This document shows, one piece after another, positions 21,541 to 63,368 of a stretch of DNA of 64,000 nucleotides. Every line of letters begins with the position of its first letter. The first letter of the stretch is position 1. The translations under genes were made by a program, and so were the position numbers. Source of the DNA: an uncultured Candidatus Saccharibacteria bacterium (GTDB taxonomy: Bacteria > Patescibacteriota > Dojkabacteria > J137); the NCBI GenBank assembly GCA_964607415.1, contig CAZSKK010000002.1, positions 224,585-288,584 on the forward strand, given 5' to 3'. The notes under the pieces were generated by a model. The model was not told the origin of the DNA. It saw only the letters and a list, made by a program, of their open reading frames with translations, and searched no databases.

Positions 21541-21571
21541 ATATGAACAAGTTTTAACACCTGCCTTTCCA

Positions 21572-21603
21572 GAGAATGCATATTATGCATTTCGAATGCA
21601 GCT
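21572..21603. repeat. Family A dispersed element copy 1 (GAGAATGCATATTATGCATTtCGAATGCAGCT)
   Basis: One of 4 near-identical copies; contains inverted repeat GAATGCATA-T-TATGCATTC; shares 50 or more extra nt of similarity with copy 2. Confidence 0.8.
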
Positions 21604-21706
21604 AGCTTAGCTCCATTCAACAGCACAATGGCTGTCTCGAGTCGATTTCTGAACTTTGTTTCAGAATCGGATGAGGCAAATTAAATAATTTTTCTACTCA
21701 ACAGCA

Positions 21707-24256: not shown

Positions 24257-25672
24257 CTACTCTTCGTCTTCATTGTCCGCACACTCGTTAATTCTTGCAA
24301 TAATATTAACAACTTGTTGATTAAATCCATCTTGTATCATCATTTTACTTCTAACTTTATCAATTGCATGTAAAACAGTTGTATGATCTTTTCTGTTAAG
24401 AAAATTTGCAATTTGTTCAAGTTTATAATTAAATTCTTCTCTTAAAATATACATTGCTACTTGCCTTGCCAATGCTAGCTCTTTTGTCCTTCTTGGACCT
24501 TTAATATCTTTGACTGTTAAATTAAAAGCTTTAGCAACTTCTTTTAAAATTTTTGGTAATTTTACCTTTTCTCTTTTTGCTTTTGTATCTAAGCCTAAAC
24601 AGTGTGCTACCTCTTCCATTGTAAGCTCTCCTTCAGGTTTCATTTGATTAAACAGGCTTACTTTTTGAAGTGCGCCTTCCAATGCCCTTATATTATCTGG
24701 TATCGACCTTGCAACAAATTCAAGAATTTGATTATTTAAACTAAAACCGAATGACTCCGATTTTCTATTTACTATTGCAAGTCTCATTTCATAATCAGGC
24801 GTTCCAACATCAACAACCATGCCGCCCTGCATTCTTGATCTCAAACGACTTTCAAGATTTTGTATTTCTTCCGGTCGCCTATCTGCAATCATAATGATTT
24901 GCTTTCCAGCGTTATACAACTCGTTAAAAGTATTAAAAAATTCCTCCTGAGTTACTATCCACTTTGAAATTAATTGCATATCATCGATAATCAAAACATC
25001 CACAGGTCTATACCTATTTCTAAATTTCTCTTGTTGCCCTGTTTTAATTGCTCTAACCATATCATTCAAAAAACCTTCTGAACTTGTATATACTATTTTT
25101 CTTTTTATATTTCTTTCTAGAATTGATCGTCCGATTGCTTGTGCAAGATGTGTTTTTCCAACTCCAGTTTTCCCGTAAATAAAAAGTGGATTATAAATCT
25201 GACCTGGTCTTTCAATTATTGCTAACGACGCAGCATGAGCAATTCTGTTAGGATTTCCAACTATGTAGTTAGACATCGAATATTTTGGGTTTAATCCTGA
25301 TGCAACGACTTCATCCAGCACACTCCCCATAATCCCATTTTCAGCAGAAAGAATAGAACTAGAATCTACATAAGACCTGCTGTCTTCTTGAACGATAGAA
25401 GATTCTATCTGAGATTGTTGATAAACCTCAAAAACTGGTATAAGGCTATCGCCATATACATAACTGATAGTGTCTTTAATAAGGTTGTCGTATCTAACTT
25501 TTAGCCACTCTGAAGTATAGGGATTAGGTACTCCAATAACAGCCTTTTTCCCATCCACTTTTATTAATTTAGTATCCTGAAAAAAAGTTTTGAAGGTTGC
25601 TGGAGCATCTAGCTTGATCTCTATTTGAGCCAATGTGGTTTTCCAGAGCTGGTCGTGTTCACGTACTTTCAT
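24257..25672 (-). CDS. dnaA: Chromosomal replication initiator DnaA
   Basis: AAA+ GKTGVGKTHL, DDMQ, C-terminal DNA-binding domain KELALARQVAMYILRE..TTVLHAIDKV. Confidence 0.95.
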   Translation of the reverse strand: MKVREHDQLWKTTLAQIEIKLDAPATFKTFFQDTKLIKVDGKKAVIGVPNPYTSEWLKVRYDNLIKDTISYVYGDSLIPVFEVYQQSQIESSIVQEDSRSYVDSSSILSAENGIMGSVLDEVVASGLNPKYSMSNYIVGNPNRIAHAASLAIIERPGQIYNPLFIYGKTGVGKTHLAQAIGRSILERNIKRKIVYTSSEGFLNDMVRAIKTGQQEKFRNRYRPVDVLIIDDMQLISKWIVTQEEFFNTFNELYNAGKQIIMIADRRPEEIQNLESRLRSRMQGGMVVDVGTPDYEMRLAIVNRKSESFGFSLNNQILEFVARSIPDNIRALEGALQKVSLFNQMKPEGELTMEEVAHCLGLDTKAKREKVKLPKILKEVAKAFNLTVKDIKGPRRTKELALARQVAMYILREEFNYKLEQIANFLNRKDHTTVLHAIDKVRSKMMIQDGFNQQVVNIIARINECADNEDEE

Positions 25673-29474: not shown

Positions 29475-29734
29475 ATAATTCTTTAAACATAAATATTCTA
29501 CAAAAAAGTTAGCGTGTTTGCGAGTTTAAGTGTTACCGAATTCTTAATTTTAGTTTTTAGCTAATTGCTTTCTGCTAAATGCTAATAGCTTATGCATTAC
29601 AACTCAATGAATGATTTTTACTATTCTGCCCTCAATATTCCTATATTCCTATCACAAACTATTCTAAAACTCTCCTCCAAACACAATCACCTTTTGCTAT
29701 TACTTGAAAAAGAAATCAACGAAAACACAACAAA

Positions 29735-29758
29735 ATTTATCAACAAAACTTATCCACC
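29735..29758. promoter_or_regulatory. DnaA-box pair upstream of dnaN (TTATCAACA, TTATCCACC)
   Basis: Two close 9-mers matching TTATCCACA consensus in AT-rich region upstream of dnaN. Confidence 0.4.
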
Positions 29759-29863
29759 TGATTAAAATCCCGGAATTTAATGCTATAATTACAAAGCAAA
29801 AAGAATATACACATATTCTTTGTTCCTAATACTATAACTTCTAATTTATAAATATATTAAAGT

Positions 29864-31015
29864 ATGAAAGTAACAGTAAACCATGAAAAGATAGCAAAAA
29901 GCCTTTCCTATATAAGCAAATCTGTTAGTCAAAAACCAAATATTCCTGTTCTATCTAATGTACTTTTTGTAAGTGAAAAAACAGGGGTAATGCTTTCTGC
30001 TACGAACTTAGACATGAGTTTACAAATGTGGATACCTGCAAAAGTAGACGAAGAAGGGTCTACAACTATTTCAGCAAAATACTTTGCAGATTTTGTTTCT
30101 GCGACAACCGGCGATAATGTGGATATTGTTTTAAAAGATAATGTTGTAAATGTGCAAACAAAATTCTCAAAGGCAAGTTTTAATACTATTGCTGCACAAG
30201 AGTTTCCAGTGCTTCCAAAAGCAAAAGGCAGTCCATTGTTTTCTATTGATACTGCAGAGTTTATAAAGTCATTAGAGAAAGTAAGCTTTGCCTGCTCAAC
30301 AGATATCTCTGCAGGTAAAATTCAGCAATCTGGGATTTTATTTGAGTTTGATAAGGAAGTGAATGACAAAATTACATTTGTGGGACTTGATAGTTTTAGA
30401 CTTTCAAAGAGGGATTCAAAGATAGCTGATCTTGATAAAGACTTTCCAAAAAGTGAGATTATAGTTCCTTCTAAATATTTAACAGAACTGTCAAGAATTC
30501 TTTTGGATAATCCTAAATTAGATAAAATTGATGTATTTTTGAGCGAATCAAAATCTCAAATAATATTTAAAGTAGAAGATTTGGAGTTTAGTGTAAGGCT
30601 AATTGAAGGGCCATATCCTGACTACAAAAGAATACTTCCAGACTCTTTCTCCTATTCTTTTGAGGTGAAAAAAGCAGAATTTGAAAAATCCATAAAAGTT
30701 GTAAATACTTTTGCAAGGAGTAATTTAGGTAATAAAACACTTTTTGATTTTGATGTTGAAAAATCTAACTTAAACTTAAAATCAGCAGTCGCAGAAGTTG
30801 GAGAAAATGAAACTACGTTAGAAATAGAGAGAGTTGATGGGGCAAGTGACCTTAATTCTGCATACAATTTGAGATATCTTCAAGATCTTGTTTCCCATGT
30901 GGATGGGGATACAATTCGTTTTGAGACAAAAGGACCTCTTGCAGCTTCAGTTTTTAAAGATAAAAGTGACCCAACGTTTATGCATTTGATAATGCCATTA
31001 AGACGTGAAGCATAG
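29864..31015 (+). CDS. dnaN: DNA polymerase III beta sliding clamp
   Basis: 383 aa; start MKVTVN..IAKSLSYISKSVSQKP..PVLSNVLF typical of DnaN. Confidence 0.9.
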   Translation: MKVTVNHEKIAKSLSYISKSVSQKPNIPVLSNVLFVSEKTGVMLSATNLDMSLQMWIPAKVDEEGSTTISAKYFADFVSATTGDNVDIVLKDNVVNVQTKFSKASFNTIAAQEFPVLPKAKGSPLFSIDTAEFIKSLEKVSFACSTDISAGKIQQSGILFEFDKEVNDKITFVGLDSFRLSKRDSKIADLDKDFPKSEIIVPSKYLTELSRILLDNPKLDKIDVFLSESKSQIIFKVEDLEFSVRLIEGPYPDYKRILPDSFSYSFEVKKAEFEKSIKVVNTFARSNLGNKTLFDFDVEKSNLNLKSAVAEVGENETTLEIERVDGASDLNSAYNLRYLQDLVSHVDGDTIRFETKGPLAASVFKDKSDPTFMHLIMPLRREA

Positions 31016-39117: not shown

Positions 39118-39163
39118 GCCTCGCCCCGGCCTCCCAAAGCTTGGCCACCCTCTCCTTTAGGAT
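39118..39163. repeat. Family B GC-rich palindromic element copy (abuts family A copy 2)
   Basis: gcctcGccccGGCCTcccAAAGCTTGGCCacCCTCTCCTttAGGAtga, parallels tsaD-internal element gcctcAcccaCCAGCCTAAAGGCTGG..CCTCTCCTgccAGGAGaagg. Confidence 0.65.
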
Positions 39164-39194
39164 GAGAATGCATATTATGCATTCGAACGGAGCT
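39164..39194. repeat. Family A element copy 2
   Basis: GAGAATGCATATTATGCATTCGAACGGAGCT; downstream about 50 nt similar to copy 1 (..AGCTA-NNN-TAGCT..AGCACAATG..). Confidence 0.8.
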
Positions 39195-39251
39195 AAATTA
39201 GCTGCACTCAAAAGCACAATGTGTTTTTTCGGGTGAGACGACCTCAGATTC

Positions 39252-41697: not shown

Positions 41698-42189
41698 TTA
41701 ATTAAGATCAGGAATAACAACTCCAAGCTTCTCTAAACTTTGAATAATTTCTGCAAGATCGTTAAGTTTCTCGTCAAGTAGTCTTGATTTTCTATTTATT
41801 TCTCTAAGTGCTAAAATCTTGCCTAAAATAGGTAACTCTGCTGTGTTTTGACTAGCAATAGCTACTTCACTAATCCACATATTATAAAAACGAACTGATT
41901 CTTTTCTCGCATTCAATAATTCATGCGATAATCTACGCTCGATTTTAGAAGGATCTACAAAAACATTTTCATTACTTGTTTCTAAAGGTAAGGGGATTTG
42001 GAGACTAGTTCCAATTACTAAAATAAGTTCTGGCTTTGTTTTCAAATCTGAGATAGGTCCTGTAAAAATCTCTCTTTGTCTAACTGAACAACCGGAACCT
42101 TCAGCTCTAGTGTTAAAATCCTGAATAAATGTTCCCACTTCTTGTAAGGTATTAGATGTTACTTCAACCTGAGGATCTAAATTAGACAT
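41698..42189 (-). CDS. Hypothetical protein with C-terminal coiled coil
   Basis: 163 aa. Confidence 0.3.
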   Translation of the reverse strand: MSNLDPQVEVTSNTLQEVGTFIQDFNTRAEGSGCSVRQREIFTGPISDLKTKPELILVIGTSLQIPLPLETSNENVFVDPSKIERRLSHELLNARKESVRFYNMWISEVAIASQNTAELPILGKILALREINRKSRLLDEKLNDLAEIIQSLEKLGVVIPDLN

Positions 42190-42336: not shown

Positions 42337-43569
42337 ATGAATAAATTAATTACCACCTTGGCAATAGACACATCTTGTGATGAAACTTCTGTAGCTGTAG
42401 TTAGAAACTTTACAGTTCTTTCAAACGTACTTCCTACTCAAATTGAATTTCACAAAAAATACGGTGGAGTAATGCCATCAGTTGCAAAATTAGCTCATAA
42501 AGAAAGAATTGATAATGTTGTGATTGAAGCTATCAAAAAAGCAAAAGTTGATTTTTCAGACATAGATGCAATTGCAGTAACAATTGGGCCAGGCCTTGCA
42601 ATTGCTTTGGAAGTTGGAATTGAAAAAGCAAAAGAACTAGCAAGCAAATACAATAAGCCTTTGATTACAGTTAATCACATGGAAGGACACCTGCTTTCGG
42701 CATTCGCCGAAAGGAAAGAAGCCTCACCCACCAGCCTAAAGGCTGGTCCCCCCTCTCCTGCCAGGAGAAGGGTTGAGGGAGAAGCTTCCTTTCCAAATCT
42801 GGGAATGCTGGTTTCCGGAAATCATACTGAAATTATTTTAATTAAAAACTTTGGCGAATATCAAAAAATTGGCGAAACGCTTGATGATTCGTGTGGAGAA
42901 GCGTATGACAAATGCGGCAGAATGTTGGGCCTTGGTTATCCTGCAGGCCCTGTTATTTCCGAATTTGCAAAACAAAACCGAAAAAATATGGAGCTTGGAA
43001 TTGCAAATATAAATAATTCGGTACATGCTTGGGCAAAAAATAAAAAAACTAAAGCCTACTACTCTCTTCCAGTTAGCATGGCAAAGTCTAATGATTTGAA
43101 CTTTAGCTATTCTGGATTAAAAACCGCATTTAAACAGCTTGTAACAAATGTAAGTGGTCAAAATATTTCGTACGAAGATCAACTTTCAGGTTCAATTAAT
43201 TTAAATAAAGAACAAATTATGGACCTTTGTGTAATTTTTGAACATGCAGCGTTAAGCCAGATTTCAATAAAGTTATCCAAGGCAATAAAACAATATAAAC
43301 CAAATGAAGTGTGGCTTGGTGGAGGTGTTGTTGCCAGCACAAGATTAAGATCAATTGTTAGAAGTTTATGCAAAGATAATAACGTGATTTTAAGGGTTGC
43401 AAATACAAAAAAACTTTTTGGTGATAATGCTGCAATGATTGGTGTAGCAGCGAATACCAGAATTATGCTTCAAGATTCAAGAATTAAGAATTTTGAACAT
43501 TCTCCGGCATACGGGATTTTTTTAAAAGACTTTCATTTAGTGGATAGAGATCCAAATCTTTCGCTTTAG
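42337..43569 (+). CDS. tsaD: tRNA N6-adenosine threonylcarbamoyltransferase TsaD, with about 21-aa in-frame insertion
   Basis: TLAIDTSCDETSVAVV, VNHMEGHLLS, VSGNHT, GYPAGP; 410 aa versus about 340 typical. Confidence 0.9.
   Translation: MNKLITTLAIDTSCDETSVAVVRNFTVLSNVLPTQIEFHKKYGGVMPSVAKLAHKERIDNVVIEAIKKAKVDFSDIDAIAVTIGPGLAIALEVGIEKAKELASKYNKPLITVNHMEGHLLSAFAERKEASPTSLKAGPPSPARRRVEGEASFPNLGMLVSGNHTEIILIKNFGEYQKIGETLDDSCGEAYDKCGRMLGLGYPAGPVISEFAKQNRKNMELGIANINNSVHAWAKNKKTKAYYSLPVSMAKSNDLNFSYSGLKTAFKQLVTNVSGQNISYEDQLSGSINLNKEQIMDLCVIFEHAALSQISIKLSKAIKQYKPNEVWLGGGVVASTRLRSIVRSLCKDNNVILRVANTKKLFGDNAAMIGVAANTRIMLQDSRIKNFEHSPAYGIFLKDFHLVDRDPNLSL
42721..42783. repeat. Family B GC-rich nested-hairpin element inserted in frame inside tsaD (encodes ASPTSLKAGPPSPARRRVEGE)
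   Basis: CCAGCC-TAAA-GGCTGG and CCTCTCCTG/CAGGAGAAGG hairpins, outer CCTCACCC/GGGTTGAGG, flanked by ggaaagaagc/gcttcctttcc; GC-rich island in AT-rich gene. Confidence 0.7.
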
Positions 43570-47678: not shown

Positions 47679-47808
47679 GGTGAAGAGCTTAAGAGCTAAT
47701 GAGGTTTTCAGATTTCCTCTCCCTTAGGGAGAGGACTAAGGTGAGGGCTTAAGAGTCGATGTTTTTTATAACCTCACCCTCCCCTCTCCTTAAATGGAGA
47801 GGGATTTG
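47677..47808. repeat. Family B GC-rich elements, two tandem units
   Basis: Unit 1 GGTGAAGAGCTTAAGAG...CCTCTCCC-TTA-GGGAGAGG; unit 2 GGTGAGGGCTTAAGAG...CCTCACCC..CCCTCTCC-TTAAAT-GGAGAGGG. Confidence 0.75.
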
Positions 47809-50116: not shown

Positions 50117-50165
50117 AATGCGGAAATGCATCATTGATATTTTAATCAGGTTGCATTTCCGCATT
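50117..50165. terminator. Long hairpin AATGCGGAAATGCA-N21-TGCATTTCCGCATT downstream of anti-sigma gene (no U-tract)
   Basis: Perfect 14-bp arms. Confidence 0.4.
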
Positions 50166-50217: not shown

Positions 50218-50248
50218 GAGAATGCATATTATGTATTCGAGTGCAGCT
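50218..50248. repeat. Family A element copy 3
   Basis: GAGAATGCATATTATGtATTCGAGTGCAGCT. Confidence 0.8.
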
Positions 50249-50271
50249 CATAAATAGAACCACGTTAAAAA

Positions 50272-54992: not shown

Positions 54993-55300
54993 TGGTATAA
55001 TTAACAAAACGTAGAAGGAGCAAAGTACATTTTTAAGGTGACAAAAGAGATTTCGTGTTAGCTGAAAACGAAACGTACTTAAAAATCGAAACTACACTCC
55101 AGAGAAAAGAGCAGAACAGCTAAAGGGCTGTAGAGGTAAAGAGCATGCTCTATCACTCTTAACCTCTATACCTCTAAAGCTCAGTAAACCTCTTCGGGTA
55201 AGCCCGTTATTGCTGTCATCAAGAGTCTAGTATCTTCACTAGAAATTGAGGTGGTACCGCTGAGAAATCAGTCCTCATAAATATAAATTCGAAATCAAAA
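54993..55300 (+). promoter_or_regulatory. T-box-like leader upstream of tyrS, with extended -10 promoter TGgTATAAT at 54993-55001
   Basis: AAATTGAGGTGGTACCGCTGAG (55243-55264) matches T-box consensus AAUUAGGGUGGUACCGCG; UGGU bulge would pair the ACCA end of a tRNA with discriminator A (assumed for tRNA-Tyr); UAC (Tyr) codon followed by A at 55025-55028 in stem-I-like region. Confidence 0.5.
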
Positions 55301-55463: not shown

Positions 55464-56585
55464 ATGACAACTCAAGAAAAAGTTGAACTAATAAAATCCA
55501 TTGCAAAAAACGGTGGGGAAATAGTTGGCGAAGAAGAACTAGCAAAAATCTTAGATTCAGGCGAAAAACTATACACATACGATGGATTTGAACCGTCTGG
55601 GCAAATGCATATTGCGCAAGGAATTATTAGGGCTATCAACACAAACAAAATGATTGAAGCAGGATTTACTTTTAGAATGTGGGTTGCAGATTGGTTCGGA
55701 TATATTAACAATAAAATGGGTGGTGATTTAGAAAAGATAAAAACTGTTGGAAATTATTTCATTGAAATTTGGAGAGCTTCTGGAATGGATCTTGATAACG
55801 TTGAATTTTTGTGGACTAGCGATTACACGGGAGATACAAATTACTGGTCAACTGTAATGAAAGTTGCAAAAGCGCTAACTTTAAATAGGGCTATAAAAAC
55901 AACTGAAATTATGGGTCGAAGCGAATCTGATAATCTAAGTGCTGCTCAAATAATTTATCCATGTATGCAAATTGCAGATATTTTTTACGTTATGAAGTGT
56001 CAGGTAACTCAACTTGGTTTAGATCAAAGAAAAGCAAACGTGATAGCACGTGAGGTTGGTCCAGAACTTGGTTACTGGAAACCTGTGATTGTAAGTCACG
56101 GAATGTTACAAGGATTGGGTACTCCTCTACCAAAAGATATTGATGCAACAGAACGAGCTATCTCTATGAAAATGAGTAAGTCTAAACCAGATACAGCTAT
56201 ATTTATGACTGATTCAAGGGAAGAAATTCAAAGAAAAATCACAAAAGCGTTTTGCCCTGAGGGTCAAGTAGAAGAAAACCCTGTTTTAGATTACTGTAAG
56301 CAAATTATTTTTGAAGCTAAATGGCTAAAAAGAGAAACTCCTTTACTTACCAATGGAACGTTTGAAGTAAAAAGACCAGAAAAATTTGGGGGTGATATTT
56401 CTTACGGAAGTTATGAAGAACTTGAGAAGGATTATGCCGGAAAAAAATTATTCCCACTTGATTTAAAAAATGCAGTTATTGAATATCTGGATCAATTAGT
56501 GGCTCCAGTTAGATCTCATTTTGAAACTGATCCAAAGGCAAAGGCACTTTTGGAAGAAGTAAAAAGTTATCAGGTAACAAGATAA
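55464..56585 (+). CDS. tyrS: Tyrosine--tRNA ligase, archaeal/eukaryotic type
   Basis: YDGFEPSGQMHIAQG, KMSKSKP, and C-terminal KAFCPEGQVEENP...KRPEKFGGDISYGSYEELE..LFPLDLKNAV collinear with Methanocaldococcus TyrRS. Confidence 0.9.
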   Translation: MTTQEKVELIKSIAKNGGEIVGEEELAKILDSGEKLYTYDGFEPSGQMHIAQGIIRAINTNKMIEAGFTFRMWVADWFGYINNKMGGDLEKIKTVGNYFIEIWRASGMDLDNVEFLWTSDYTGDTNYWSTVMKVAKALTLNRAIKTTEIMGRSESDNLSAAQIIYPCMQIADIFYVMKCQVTQLGLDQRKANVIAREVGPELGYWKPVIVSHGMLQGLGTPLPKDIDATERAISMKMSKSKPDTAIFMTDSREEIQRKITKAFCPEGQVEENPVLDYCKQIIFEAKWLKRETPLLTNGTFEVKRPEKFGGDISYGSYEELEKDYAGKKLFPLDLKNAVIEYLDQLVAPVRSHFETDPKAKALLEEVKSYQVTR

Positions 56586-56605: not shown

Positions 56606-56641
56606 GAAAGCGCGGCGTAAAACGTCGCGCTTTCTTTTTTG
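56606..56641 (+). terminator. Rho-independent terminator of tyrS (GAAAGCGCGGCG-TAAAA-CGTCGCGCTTTC + T-run); also family C palindrome copy 1
   Basis: GC-rich perfect stem followed by TTTTTTG. Confidence 0.8.
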
Positions 56642-59654: not shown

Positions 59655-60218
59655 ATGGGAAATTTGCACACTCATCAAAAAAGGTTTTACGTTGATCAGT
59701 TAGTTTACTTTGTTACAATAAAAACCCTTAATAATTTTCCTTATTTTAAATACAATTTTCTTGCTGATTTATTTATAGCTGAGCTTACACTTTGTCAAGA
59801 GATTAAAAATTTTGAACTTTATGCGTTTAATGTTCTCTACGATCATGTTCATATTTTGTTAAAACCATCCAAAGAATCAAATATTTCGGTAATAATAAAG
59901 TCTCTAAAAGAAAATTTTTCCCGTGATGCGAACAGGATTATTTTAAAAAAGCCAATTGAAGCCGCGGCGTCGACGTCGCGGCTTCACATCGATAAAAATA
60001 TAAATGAAGTGATCAAACAAAAACAGCTTTTTATGCCTAAGTTTGCATGGCAAAAATCATTTCATGATCATTACATTCGGAACTCTAAAGATTTGAAAAC
60101 CCGTTATAATTATACGGTTTTTAATCATTTGAAGCATTCAGAAGATAGGGCTTACACATCAGACTATAAATTTACATCTCTAAATTATTTTGAAATAATT
60201 GACGAAGCGTATTTTTAG
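59655..60218 (+). CDS. REP-associated tyrosine transposase (RAYT) / IS200-like Y1 HuH transposase homolog
   Basis: HuH motif LYDHVHILL; C-terminal WQKSFHDHYIRNSKDLKTRYNYTVFNHLKH (WQ..F.DH.IR..........Y...NP-type catalytic Tyr region); 187 aa; no terminal IS structure seen. Confidence 0.65.
   Translation: MGNLHTHQKRFYVDQLVYFVTIKTLNNFPYFKYNFLADLFIAELTLCQEIKNFELYAFNVLYDHVHILLKPSKESNISVIIKSLKENFSRDANRIILKKPIEAAASTSRLHIDKNINEVIKQKQLFMPKFAWQKSFHDHYIRNSKDLKTRYNYTVFNHLKHSEDRAYTSDYKFTSLNYFEIIDEAYF
59958..59985. repeat. Family C GC-rich palindrome GAAGCCGCGGCG-TCGA-CGTCGCGGCTTC inside the RAYT ORF (encodes EAAASTSRLH)
   Basis: 11/12 complementary arms; GC island in AT-rich gene; related to 56606-56634. 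Confidence 0.7.
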
Positions 60219-62110: not shown

Positions 62111-62130
62111 AGGTTTATTATAGCGCAAAA

Positions 62131-62191
62131 ACCCCTCTTCTATTCTCCCCTTTAATCAAAGGGGAGATGTCGAACGTAGTGAGACAGAGGG
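62131..62191. repeat. Family B GC-rich nested hairpin (CCCTCT...CTCCCCTTT-AATC-AAAGGGGAG...AGAGGG)
   Basis: Perfect 9-bp inner hairpin 62145-62166 enclosed by CCCTCT/AGAGGG; between RIO-kinase stop and truB start. Confidence 0.7.
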
Positions 62192-62192
62192 A

Positions 62193-62930
62193 TTAGTTAA
62201 AAGGTACATGCCTAGTAAGAGACAAAGGCGTTGTTCCATGCATAAAATTATCTTTAATCTCCAAAAGCTCTTTGTAATCAATATCAATAAACTTTGAAAA
62301 GAATTTGTAAATATTATCCAAATCTTTTTGTAGTTTTTCTGATGCAAATGGGTTTTTGAAATCTAACATTTGTGGAAAATCAATTGCATAGGCAGAATTC
62401 TCCCACCAAAGGATATTGTATTCAGAAAAATCTCCGTGCACGTAGCCAAGTTTTGTAAGAGCACGTAAAAATTCAAGTGTGTCTAGATAAGCTTTTTTAA
62501 GCTGACTTTTTGATAGGTTTAAATCTACAAGTCTTAAAGCTGGAGCACTTTCTTCTCCTAAAAACTCCATTAAAATTGCATCTTCAATAAAGTCATAAAC
62601 TTTGGGAACTTGAAGATTATATTCATTTAGTTTTTTTAAAATAGAGTACTCTCTATAAGTCCAAAAACTCCGGGTAAACATTTTGCCTTTACGTGTTTTC
62701 TTACGCATTGCCCTTGTAGTAGGTGTATCTTTCATTACATTAAGATCCAGATATTCAAACCTTGATGAATACTTTTGATTTACTTTATAGATTTTTAAGG
62801 CGAGCAACAATGAATCCATTTTTACTAAATGGACTTCTGCTTCTTTTCCTGTTTTTAATTGTCTTATATATTCAAGGTTGTAATTTTTTTCTTTGAACTG
62901 ATTTAGAACCAACGATAAGTTGTTTAGCAT
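62193..62930 (-). CDS. RIO-type atypical serine protein kinase
   Basis: GKEAEVHLV...LALKIYKV (ATP-binding), YVHGDFSEYNILW (catalytic loop), AIDFPQ (metal-binding) parallel RIO1 motifs. Confidence 0.65.
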   Translation of the reverse strand: MLNNLSLVLNQFKEKNYNLEYIRQLKTGKEAEVHLVKMDSLLLALKIYKVNQKYSSRFEYLDLNVMKDTPTTRAMRKKTRKGKMFTRSFWTYREYSILKKLNEYNLQVPKVYDFIEDAILMEFLGEESAPALRLVDLNLSKSQLKKAYLDTLEFLRALTKLGYVHGDFSEYNILWWENSAYAIDFPQMLDFKNPFASEKLQKDLDNIYKFFSKFIDIDYKELLEIKDNFMHGTTPLSLTRHVPFN

Positions 62931-62986
62931 AGGCGTGAAAATTTAGAATTATAAGTAAAAATATGACTCTTTCCCCTCTTGGGAGC

Positions 62987-63017: not shown

Positions 63018-63368
63018 TAATACATTTATGCTTTTTAAGGGTAGTGGCATACAAAACTAAATTTCAGCCACCCTCCTTAATTCTCCCTCAAGGGAGGAGA
63101 AAATTACCAAGAACTAGAAATTGATAGAAAATATTAAGAGGTTCAAACTAGAAGTTTCTAATTACCACCTCGATTTGTGTTGAGTTTTGTTCTGTCATAA
63201 TACAAAGTGGTAAAAAGTAAAGATAGATAATATTAGCAGAATTATGATTCAAGATTCAAGAATAATTTTCAATTCTCAAGTATCAATTTCCAGTAAAGAT
63301 TTTGTGAAAATTGATAATTTCTGCTGGAGTGATAGAATATATTTAGTACTATTTTTTAACCTAGCAAT

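Follow-up and report, generated by a model that had tools for sequence, protein, structure and literature searches.

What is the short palindrome that recurs between the genes of a Candidatus Dojkabacteria (Patescibacteria) genome, and how did it come to be there? The stretch of DNA analysed here, called the window, is 64,000 nucleotides long, and the repeat is called family A. The initial annotation had offered three candidate roles: a REP/MITE-like repeat, a small-RNA family, or an operator of a dimeric regulator. The analysis described below indicates that family A is very probably a mobile REP/REPIN-like element.

Four intergenic copies of family A

A pattern search of the window with the 31-mer GAGAATGCATATTATGCATTCGARTGCAGCT, allowing up to 3 mismatches, found matches at 39164 (2 mismatches), 50218 (1), and 62987 (1), while the chance expectation in 100 shuffles was 0.00. 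Copy 1, at 21572, has one extra T (GCATTTCGAA) and matches the 31-mer only with a gap. Against an expectation of 0, the four copies that had been annotated are real, one of them being a gapped match. Their inverted-repeat core, the 19-nt sequence GAATGCATA-T-TATGCATTC, was found in all four with no or one mismatch. All four copies are on the + strand and, as had been claimed, all four lie between ORFs.

The family A unit is AT-rich and about 32 nt long. It consists of GA, a 19-nt hairpin (9-1-9, with a 9-bp stem), and a conserved unpaired tail, (C/T)GARTGSAGCTA, whose conserved part is CGARTGSAGCTA. The 9-1-9 palindrome is present in every unit. A covariance model of the unit, run with the filters off, detected exactly six units in the window (four left units and two right units), and the next-best match had an E value of 0.2. 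The units and the doublets that they form are as follows.

21572..21604, + strand: copy 1, left unit; GA, hairpin GAATGCATA-T-TATGCATT(T)C with a 1-nt T insertion, and tail GAATGCAGCTA; 42.8 bits
21608..21638, - strand: copy 1, right unit; inverted and diverged, hairpin ACAGC/GCTGT, tail GAATGGAGCTA; 33.1 bits
21572-21638: copy 1 doublet, 67 nt, left and right units
39164..39195, + strand: copy 2, left unit; 47.3 bits
39199..39230, - strand: copy 2, right unit; reverse complement GAAAAAACACATTGTGCTTTTGAGTGCAGCTA; 46.2 bits
39164-39230: copy 2 doublet, 67 nt, left and right units
50218..50249, + strand: copy 3, single unit with no recognisable partner arm; 46.5 bits
62987..63018, + strand: copy 4, single unit; 44.6 bits

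The genes on either side of copy 1 are both on the minus strand. Copies 2 and 3 both lie between convergent genes, adjoining an ApbE gene and a TP_methylase (RsmI-like) gene, respectively, and copy 4 lies between divergent genes and adjoins a RIO1-domain gene. When the sites of a close relative (see below) are included, three of the six family A sites are in a convergent-gene setting. The gene next to copy 4 (62193-62930, - strand) encodes a RIO1-domain kinase in a bacterial genome.

Typical REP/REPIN sequences occur in tens to hundreds of dispersed, mostly extragenic copies per genome. In the ~80 kb of the source genome that was sampled, family A has four loci, a modest copy number, and family A words are among the most frequent 14-mers. 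No further copy was found in the 10 kb leftward (L067) or the 6 kb rightward (L060) of the window.

A likely replication origin lies in the window (region 29475-29863; dnaA at 24257-25672, - strand; dnaN at 29864-31015, + strand). The cumulative GC skew has its minimum at ~29-30 kb, between the pyruvate kinase gene and dnaN, and gene orientation switches there. A replication-strand bias of family A was considered, since all four copies are on the + strand, and was rejected: the likely origin falls between copy 1 and the other copies, and thus their orientation relative to replication is inconsistent.

A head-to-head doublet with a conserved hairpin in each arm

Copies 1 and 2 had been described as sharing an extended downstream module. 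The sharing was borne out (~35 more bases are common to both copies), and what had been missed is that the module is a second family A unit, inverted and diverged. The right arm of copy 2 is identical to the left-unit consensus at 25 of 32 positions, and a match as good was obtained in 0 of 100,000 shuffles. A profile built from the four left arms alone recovers this right arm from the whole window with an E value of 0.014. All 10 family A arms, from the window and the relative, can be aligned with one another.

The full family A element is a head-to-head doublet of 67 nt, composed of a left unit, a 3-nt loop, and a right unit, whose tails overlap as AGCTA-NNN-TAGCT and pair together. The doublet is predicted to fold, as single-stranded DNA or RNA, into either three consecutive hairpins or one long hairpin, and its folding stability is above that of shuffles (z -2.0 to -3.2). 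The folding stability of the two singlets, copies 3 and 4, is not above that of shuffles. These singlets are probably decayed doublets; for known REP families, dimers with unlike stems in the two partners and singletons left over from dimers have been described (PMC3733652). The sequence TGCTTTTTAAGGGTAG downstream of copy 4 (63029-63044) may be a remnant of the right arm. Decayed right arms at copies 3 and 4 were considered, and the covariance model detects neither of them; they are a weak suggestion at most.

The doublet is a heterodimer, in that the left and right units keep the hairpin and differ in the sequence of the stem.

Left-arm stem: GAATGCATA/TATGCATTC
Right-arm stem of copy 2 and of the relative's doublet in contig L044: AAAAGCACA/TGTGCTTTT
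Right-arm stem of the relative's doublet in contig L055: GGCAGCATA/TATGCTGCC
Right-arm stem of copy 1: ACAGC/GCTGT

Is it the pairing or the sequence that is conserved? Across the 10 arms, 83% of the cells in the hairpin stems hold standard pairs, and the covariance check that had been proposed for the family gave a positive answer: in five of the nine stem pairs, both sides have changed in a compensatory way (11 cells). Covariation scored 0.385, compared with 0.214 in shuffles, and 0 of 500 shuffles attained this score. When the partner columns are slid, pairing falls to 18-47%. Since the arms are only 10 in number and related to one another, this covariation is good evidence but falls short of proof. 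What is conserved is the hairpin within each arm, not arm-to-arm complementarity. The initial annotation had read AGCTA-GCT-TAGCT versus AGCTA-AAT-TAGCT as compensatory variation; this difference lies in the loop only, and the true compensatory changes are those in the 9-bp hairpins.

The differing stems bear on the operator reading, according to which the palindrome would bind a dimeric DNA-binding regulator and the four sites would form a regulon. The right arms are palindromic with a different half-site, which a sequence-specific dimeric regulator would not tolerate. In addition, gene ends flank copies 2 and 3, conservation extends beyond the palindrome to an asymmetric tail of 12 nt, and the sites are not conserved in the 93%-identical relative. 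Thus, an operator is hardly credible here, even though the 9-1-9 palindrome and the position of copy 4 in a divergent promoter region would suit one.

It is also quite unlikely that family A acts mainly at the RNA level, either as a structured small RNA or as a 3′-end hairpin that stabilises or terminates transcripts. Stable hairpins with covariation and the convergent-gene setting of half of the sites are in keeping with such a role, and REPs serve as mRNA 3′ stabilisers in other bacteria (PMC3733652). However, Rfam 15 gave no match at the gathering score in the window and none at E <=1 on copies 1 and 2. In simple scans, copies 2 and 4 gave no signal resembling a promoter or a terminator, and no intrinsic terminator (a GC-rich hairpin followed by a T run) at either of them. 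A separate strong hairpin beside copy 3 (50118-50165) already follows the upstream gene. The copies occur in convergent, co-directional, and divergent contexts, including divergent promoter regions, and in either orientation to the neighbouring genes. Their presence or absence between close relatives, described next, also speaks against an essential conserved RNA gene. If family A is a mobile REP-like repeat, any effect on the host, for example as an mRNA 3′-end hairpin, would be secondary.

Gain and loss of copies between close relatives

Those homologs of the ApbE protein that bear a name belong to Candidatus Dojkabacteria. A close relative is represented by Logan contigs, whose ApbE protein shares 93% identity with that of the window, as does a flank protein of 190 aa. 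A comparison of syntenic loci had been suggested by the initial annotation, and it was found that the sites of copies 1 and 2 are both empty in this relative. At the copy 2 site (contigs L044 and L045), family A is absent and there is an uninterrupted GC-rich palindrome, GCCTCACCCACCAGCCTGGAGTCTGGTCCCCCTCTCCTACAGGAGAGGGGCAGGGAGAGAGGCG, of a second repeat family called family B. In the window, the copy 2 doublet sits inside the family B palindrome, just past its central hairpin, and no clear target-site duplication is evident.

At the copy 1 site, the intergenic spacer is 166 nt in the window and 54 nt in the relative (L055/L056). In a more distant relative (L058), the spacer is 2 nt. Since the site is empty in L055/L056 and the spacer in L058 is so short, the absence is ancestral, and copy 1 was gained in the lineage of the window. 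The segment concerned is as follows.

21544..21655: 112-nt stretch missing from L055/L056; the copy 1 doublet plus ~28 nt on each side, with boundaries accurate to ~2 nt

There is a possible 2-nt AT duplication at the junctions. Because the 112-nt indel is longer than the doublet, it reflects either the movement of a longer piece or one event nested within another.

The relative has family A doublets of its own, at two loci in 21 kb. One (L044:2067-2135) lies between convergent genes, and the other (L055:33-98) lies upstream of pyruvate kinase; the window has no equivalent of either. The intergenic region around L055:33 is too diverged for the insertion boundaries to be placed. These results show that family A copies have been gained or lost at syntenic sites since the two species-level lineages split.

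Nine same-species contigs have copies 1 and 3 in identical form. One base within the right arm of copy 2 is the end point of two Logan contigs that come from different samples (L014 at its end, 3924, and L015 at its end, 2466, both equivalent to ~39204 of the window). The shared end suggests that a repeat broke the assembly and that the genome has another, nearly identical copy at a different place. Family A repeats matter for short-read assemblies, which they break, as in these two contigs that end in copy 2, and family A insertions are strain- and species-level markers. A gene-level indel was also noted: a 163-aa ORF without a Pfam match (41698-42189, - strand), located between an abhydrolase-like gene and tsaD, occurs in same-species contigs (L014), and the 93% relative (L044) lacks it.

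A RAYT gene in the same genome

When the ORFs of the window were scanned against Pfam, one transposase-like gene (Y1_Tnp) was found.

59655..60218, + strand: gene for a REP-associated tyrosine transposase (RAYT), 187 aa; HUH motif in DHVHIL, tyrosine in YNYTVFNHLKH

The protein matches the NCBIfam model NF047646, 'REP-associated tyrosine transposase', with an E value of 1.6e-22 and 80 bits, which is exactly the curated cut-off (80), and the IS200 model gives only 21 bits on the same protein. By sequence, its best PDB match is 4er8, the complex of E. coli TnpAREP with REP, and its DHVHIL and YNYTVFNHLKH stretches align with the motifs of E. coli TnpAREP. An AlphaFold model of moderate confidence (pLDDT 68) had 4er8_A as the top Foldseek hit (E 2.5e-7), followed by the ISDra2 and IS608 transposases. 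Thus, the 187-aa protein has what is expected of a RAYT: the HUH motif, the catalytic tyrosine, a RAYT profile score higher than the IS200 score, and a TnpAREP-like fold. The HUH motif and the tyrosine are conserved among its homologs, which form a moderately large clade (229 representative clusters at E <=1e-10).

The gene is single-copy in the window, and its position is conserved in same-species contigs. Its upstream spacer is 51 nt, and its 3′ end overlaps obg. Copy 4 is 2.8 kb away, and there is no family A unit within 2.7 kb of the gene; the 12-mers flanking it are not repeated. A protein search found no ortholog with more than 50% identity, although other proteins of the relative are present in that database, and thus the relative may carry family A copies without this RAYT.

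Many RAYT homologs are 200-290 aa in length, and a variable middle (query residues ~100-125) splits their match in two. One homolog, P0139, has an extra PARLRLATKSLAGG in the variable middle loop. This alignment pattern suggests recurrent in-frame insertions into the middle loop among the homologs.

Families B and C and nested palindromes

The initial annotation placed copies 2 and 4 directly beside GC-rich family B fragments, and this was confirmed.

39118..39162: family B palindrome, left part, interrupted by copy 2; its right end, GGGTGAGACG, is at 39231-39240
62967-62986 and 63067-63099: family B-like fragments around copy 4
47774-47804 and 62129-62192: further family B fragments or B-like hairpins

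Family B fragments, together with B-like hairpins (CCCTCTCC...GGAGAGGG), occur at roughly the frequency of family A. Copy 2, copy 4, and L044:2067, which make up half of the six family A copies, are similarly placed relative to family B parts, which suggests either a target preference or a composite unit.

A family B palindrome was also found inside a gene. It lies in frame in tsaD (42337-43569, + strand) at 42711-42793 and encodes ~29 aa (ERKEASPTSLKAGPPSPARRRVEGEASFP). The tsaD ortholog of the 93% relative (L044) has no B insert; its two private inserts, of 32 and 16 aa, are different ones.

A third, GC-rich palindrome is called family C. One such palindrome, GAAGCCGCGGCGTCGACGTCGCGGCTTC, lies within the RAYT ORF (59958-59985). 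Since this stretch of the RAYT encodes a homolog-conserved peptide (EGDTSTCRL-like), it may not be an insertion. A similar family C palindrome follows the tRNA-synt_1b gene (56606-56634), and another (L065:10919-10946) is located within the gene adjoining a distant Dojkabacteria RAYT homolog. A T-box leader (55003-55279, 99.5 bits) was found upstream of the gene (55464-56585) for a class I tRNA synthetase of the Trp/Tyr type.

The GGGGWSAS motif has been reported in the TIRs flanking RAYT-like genes. The sequences that border copy 2 and the L044 copy on the right (GGGTGAG and GGGGTGAG) resemble this motif, and they belong to family B. Thus, family B or the GC-rich family C could be the true partner of the RAYT.

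Is family A moved by the RAYT?

Family A shares several features with REP/REPIN sequences. The unit is a short palindromic stem-loop within the range of ~20-40 nt. Inverted doublets and singlets occur together, with four doublets (two in the window and two in the relative) and singlets at 50218 and 62987. A RAYT gene is present in the same genome. Movement within the lineage is indicated by the empty sites of copies 1 and 2, by the private copies of the relative, and, for copy 1, by the outgroup. On the other side, the consensus of the family A unit has neither a GTAG nor a CGTC tag, and the RAYT gene is not flanked by cognate repeats. The two tags define two large REP super-families (PMC3733652), and a key characteristic of RAYTs associated with REPINs is an abundance of repeats at their flanks (PMC5581495). 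Furthermore, only RAYT groups 2 and 3 have been linked to REPINs (PMC5581495; bioRxiv 10.1101/2021.07.10.451892).

These missing features leave room for another source of mobility. Family A might be a MITE-like derivative of another transposon (of the DDE type or from another IS), or might be mobilised by a non-RAYT enzyme, the RAYT having family B, family C, or no repeat as its partner. In favour of such a source, the doublet amounts to a pair of ~32-nt terminal inverted repeats separated by 3 nt, and the copy 1 junctions have a possible AT duplication. The RAYT gene without flanking A units, the GGGGWSAS-like ends of family B, and the restriction of known REPIN associations to RAYT groups 2 and 3 point the same way. 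I consider this alternative unlikely: no other transposase domain was found in the window ORFs scanned, copy 2 has no clear target-site duplication, and the conserved hairpin within each arm matches recognition by hairpin-reading HUH/Y1 enzymes.

The reading that I favour, and hold to be probable, is that family A is a palindromic repeat of the REP/REPIN kind, mobile but non-autonomous and specific to its lineage, and that it is moved by RAYT-type single-strand transposition. Among the roles first proposed, the REP/MITE-like one is supported by the inverted doublets, the hairpin covariation, the empty syntenic sites, and the RAYT gene, and the small-RNA and operator roles did not hold up. E. 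coli TnpAREP binds, cuts, and rejoins REP sequences as single-stranded DNA. By analogy, the RAYT would bind the hairpin and the tail of the unit on single-stranded DNA, and would cut and rejoin the unit, so spreading the element. Because the unit has no GTAG or CGTC tag and the RAYT gene has no flanking repeats, I infer the pairing of the two from their co-occurrence and from the hairpin-plus-tail design. The chance that this particular RAYT mobilises family A seems slightly less than even.

A still bolder picture would be a working REPIN-RAYT-type system in a reduced Dojkabacteria genome, in which an untagged, AT-rich, three-hairpin heterodimer is served by one single-copy HUH transposase and prefers sites in family B palindromes, which lie in frame in essential genes. 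I propose this picture tentatively, as a possibility that is less likely than not.

Distribution and significance

How widely is family A distributed? The exact 20-mer GAGAATRCATATTATGYATT was searched for in 185,579 GTDB representative genomes and JGI metagenomes, which gave chance or coding matches only, none of them with the family A tail. No blastn match to the doublet was found in plasmid and phage collections. No family A unit was found in loci of more distant Dojkabacteria (L058/L059, L065, L066, and L071). The distribution of family A looks genus-level.

REPIN-RAYT systems have been described mainly from Proteobacteria, and they are treated as long-lived, vertically inherited replicators within genomes. 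A search of the full-text literature found no paper mentioning RAYT together with Patescibacteria, CPR, or Dojkabacteria. Family A is a new REP/REPIN-like family, in a phylum for which no described one was found in the literature. Its biology would not surprise a specialist, since new REP-like families turn up regularly. If the assignment is true, a REPIN-like architecture together with a RAYT in a streamlined genome of the candidate phyla radiation would widen the known range of such systems, and it would offer a simple study system with one RAYT and few copies.

Comparison with known systems

Family A is most readily compared with the REP/REPIN sequences and RAYTs of Pseudomonas fluorescens and Escherichia coli (PMC3116915, PMC3337134, PMC3479197). 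Both have a short palindromic unit and both occur as inverted pairs with a short spacer as well as singlets. Both are extragenic and polymorphic between related genomes, with a RAYT-type HUH/Y1 gene in the genome. In contrast to these sequences, family A is AT-rich, has no GTAG tag, and has the conserved unpaired CGARTGSAGCTA. Its copy number looks modest, and the RAYT gene is not flanked by it. The host also differs from the proteobacterial ones in having a roughly 1-Mb-class Patescibacteria genome.

The GTAG/CGTC-tagged REP families and the TIR families around TIRYT genes (Di Nocera et al. 2013, PMC3733652) resemble family A in forming head-to-head dimers, including heterodimers with different stems, which fold as separate stem-loops or as one large stem-loop. 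In those systems, as here, several repeat families co-occur and some repeats lie within genes. Unlike them, family A has neither tag, and the GGGGWSAS-like motif is found in family B next to it.

Rickettsia palindromic elements (RPE) and other intragenic palindromic repeats lie within genes, as does family B in tsaD, whereas family A itself was seen only between genes. The MITEs Correia (Neisseria) and RUP or BOX (Streptococcus) are, like family A, small non-autonomous intergenic elements with inverted repeats. Family A differs from them in having no clear target duplication, no parent IS in view, and a length of only 67 nt; it also differs from MITEs in that its conserved feature is the hairpin within each arm. 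What is unusual in family A is the host phylum, the AT-rich untagged unit, and the insertion into another palindromic repeat.
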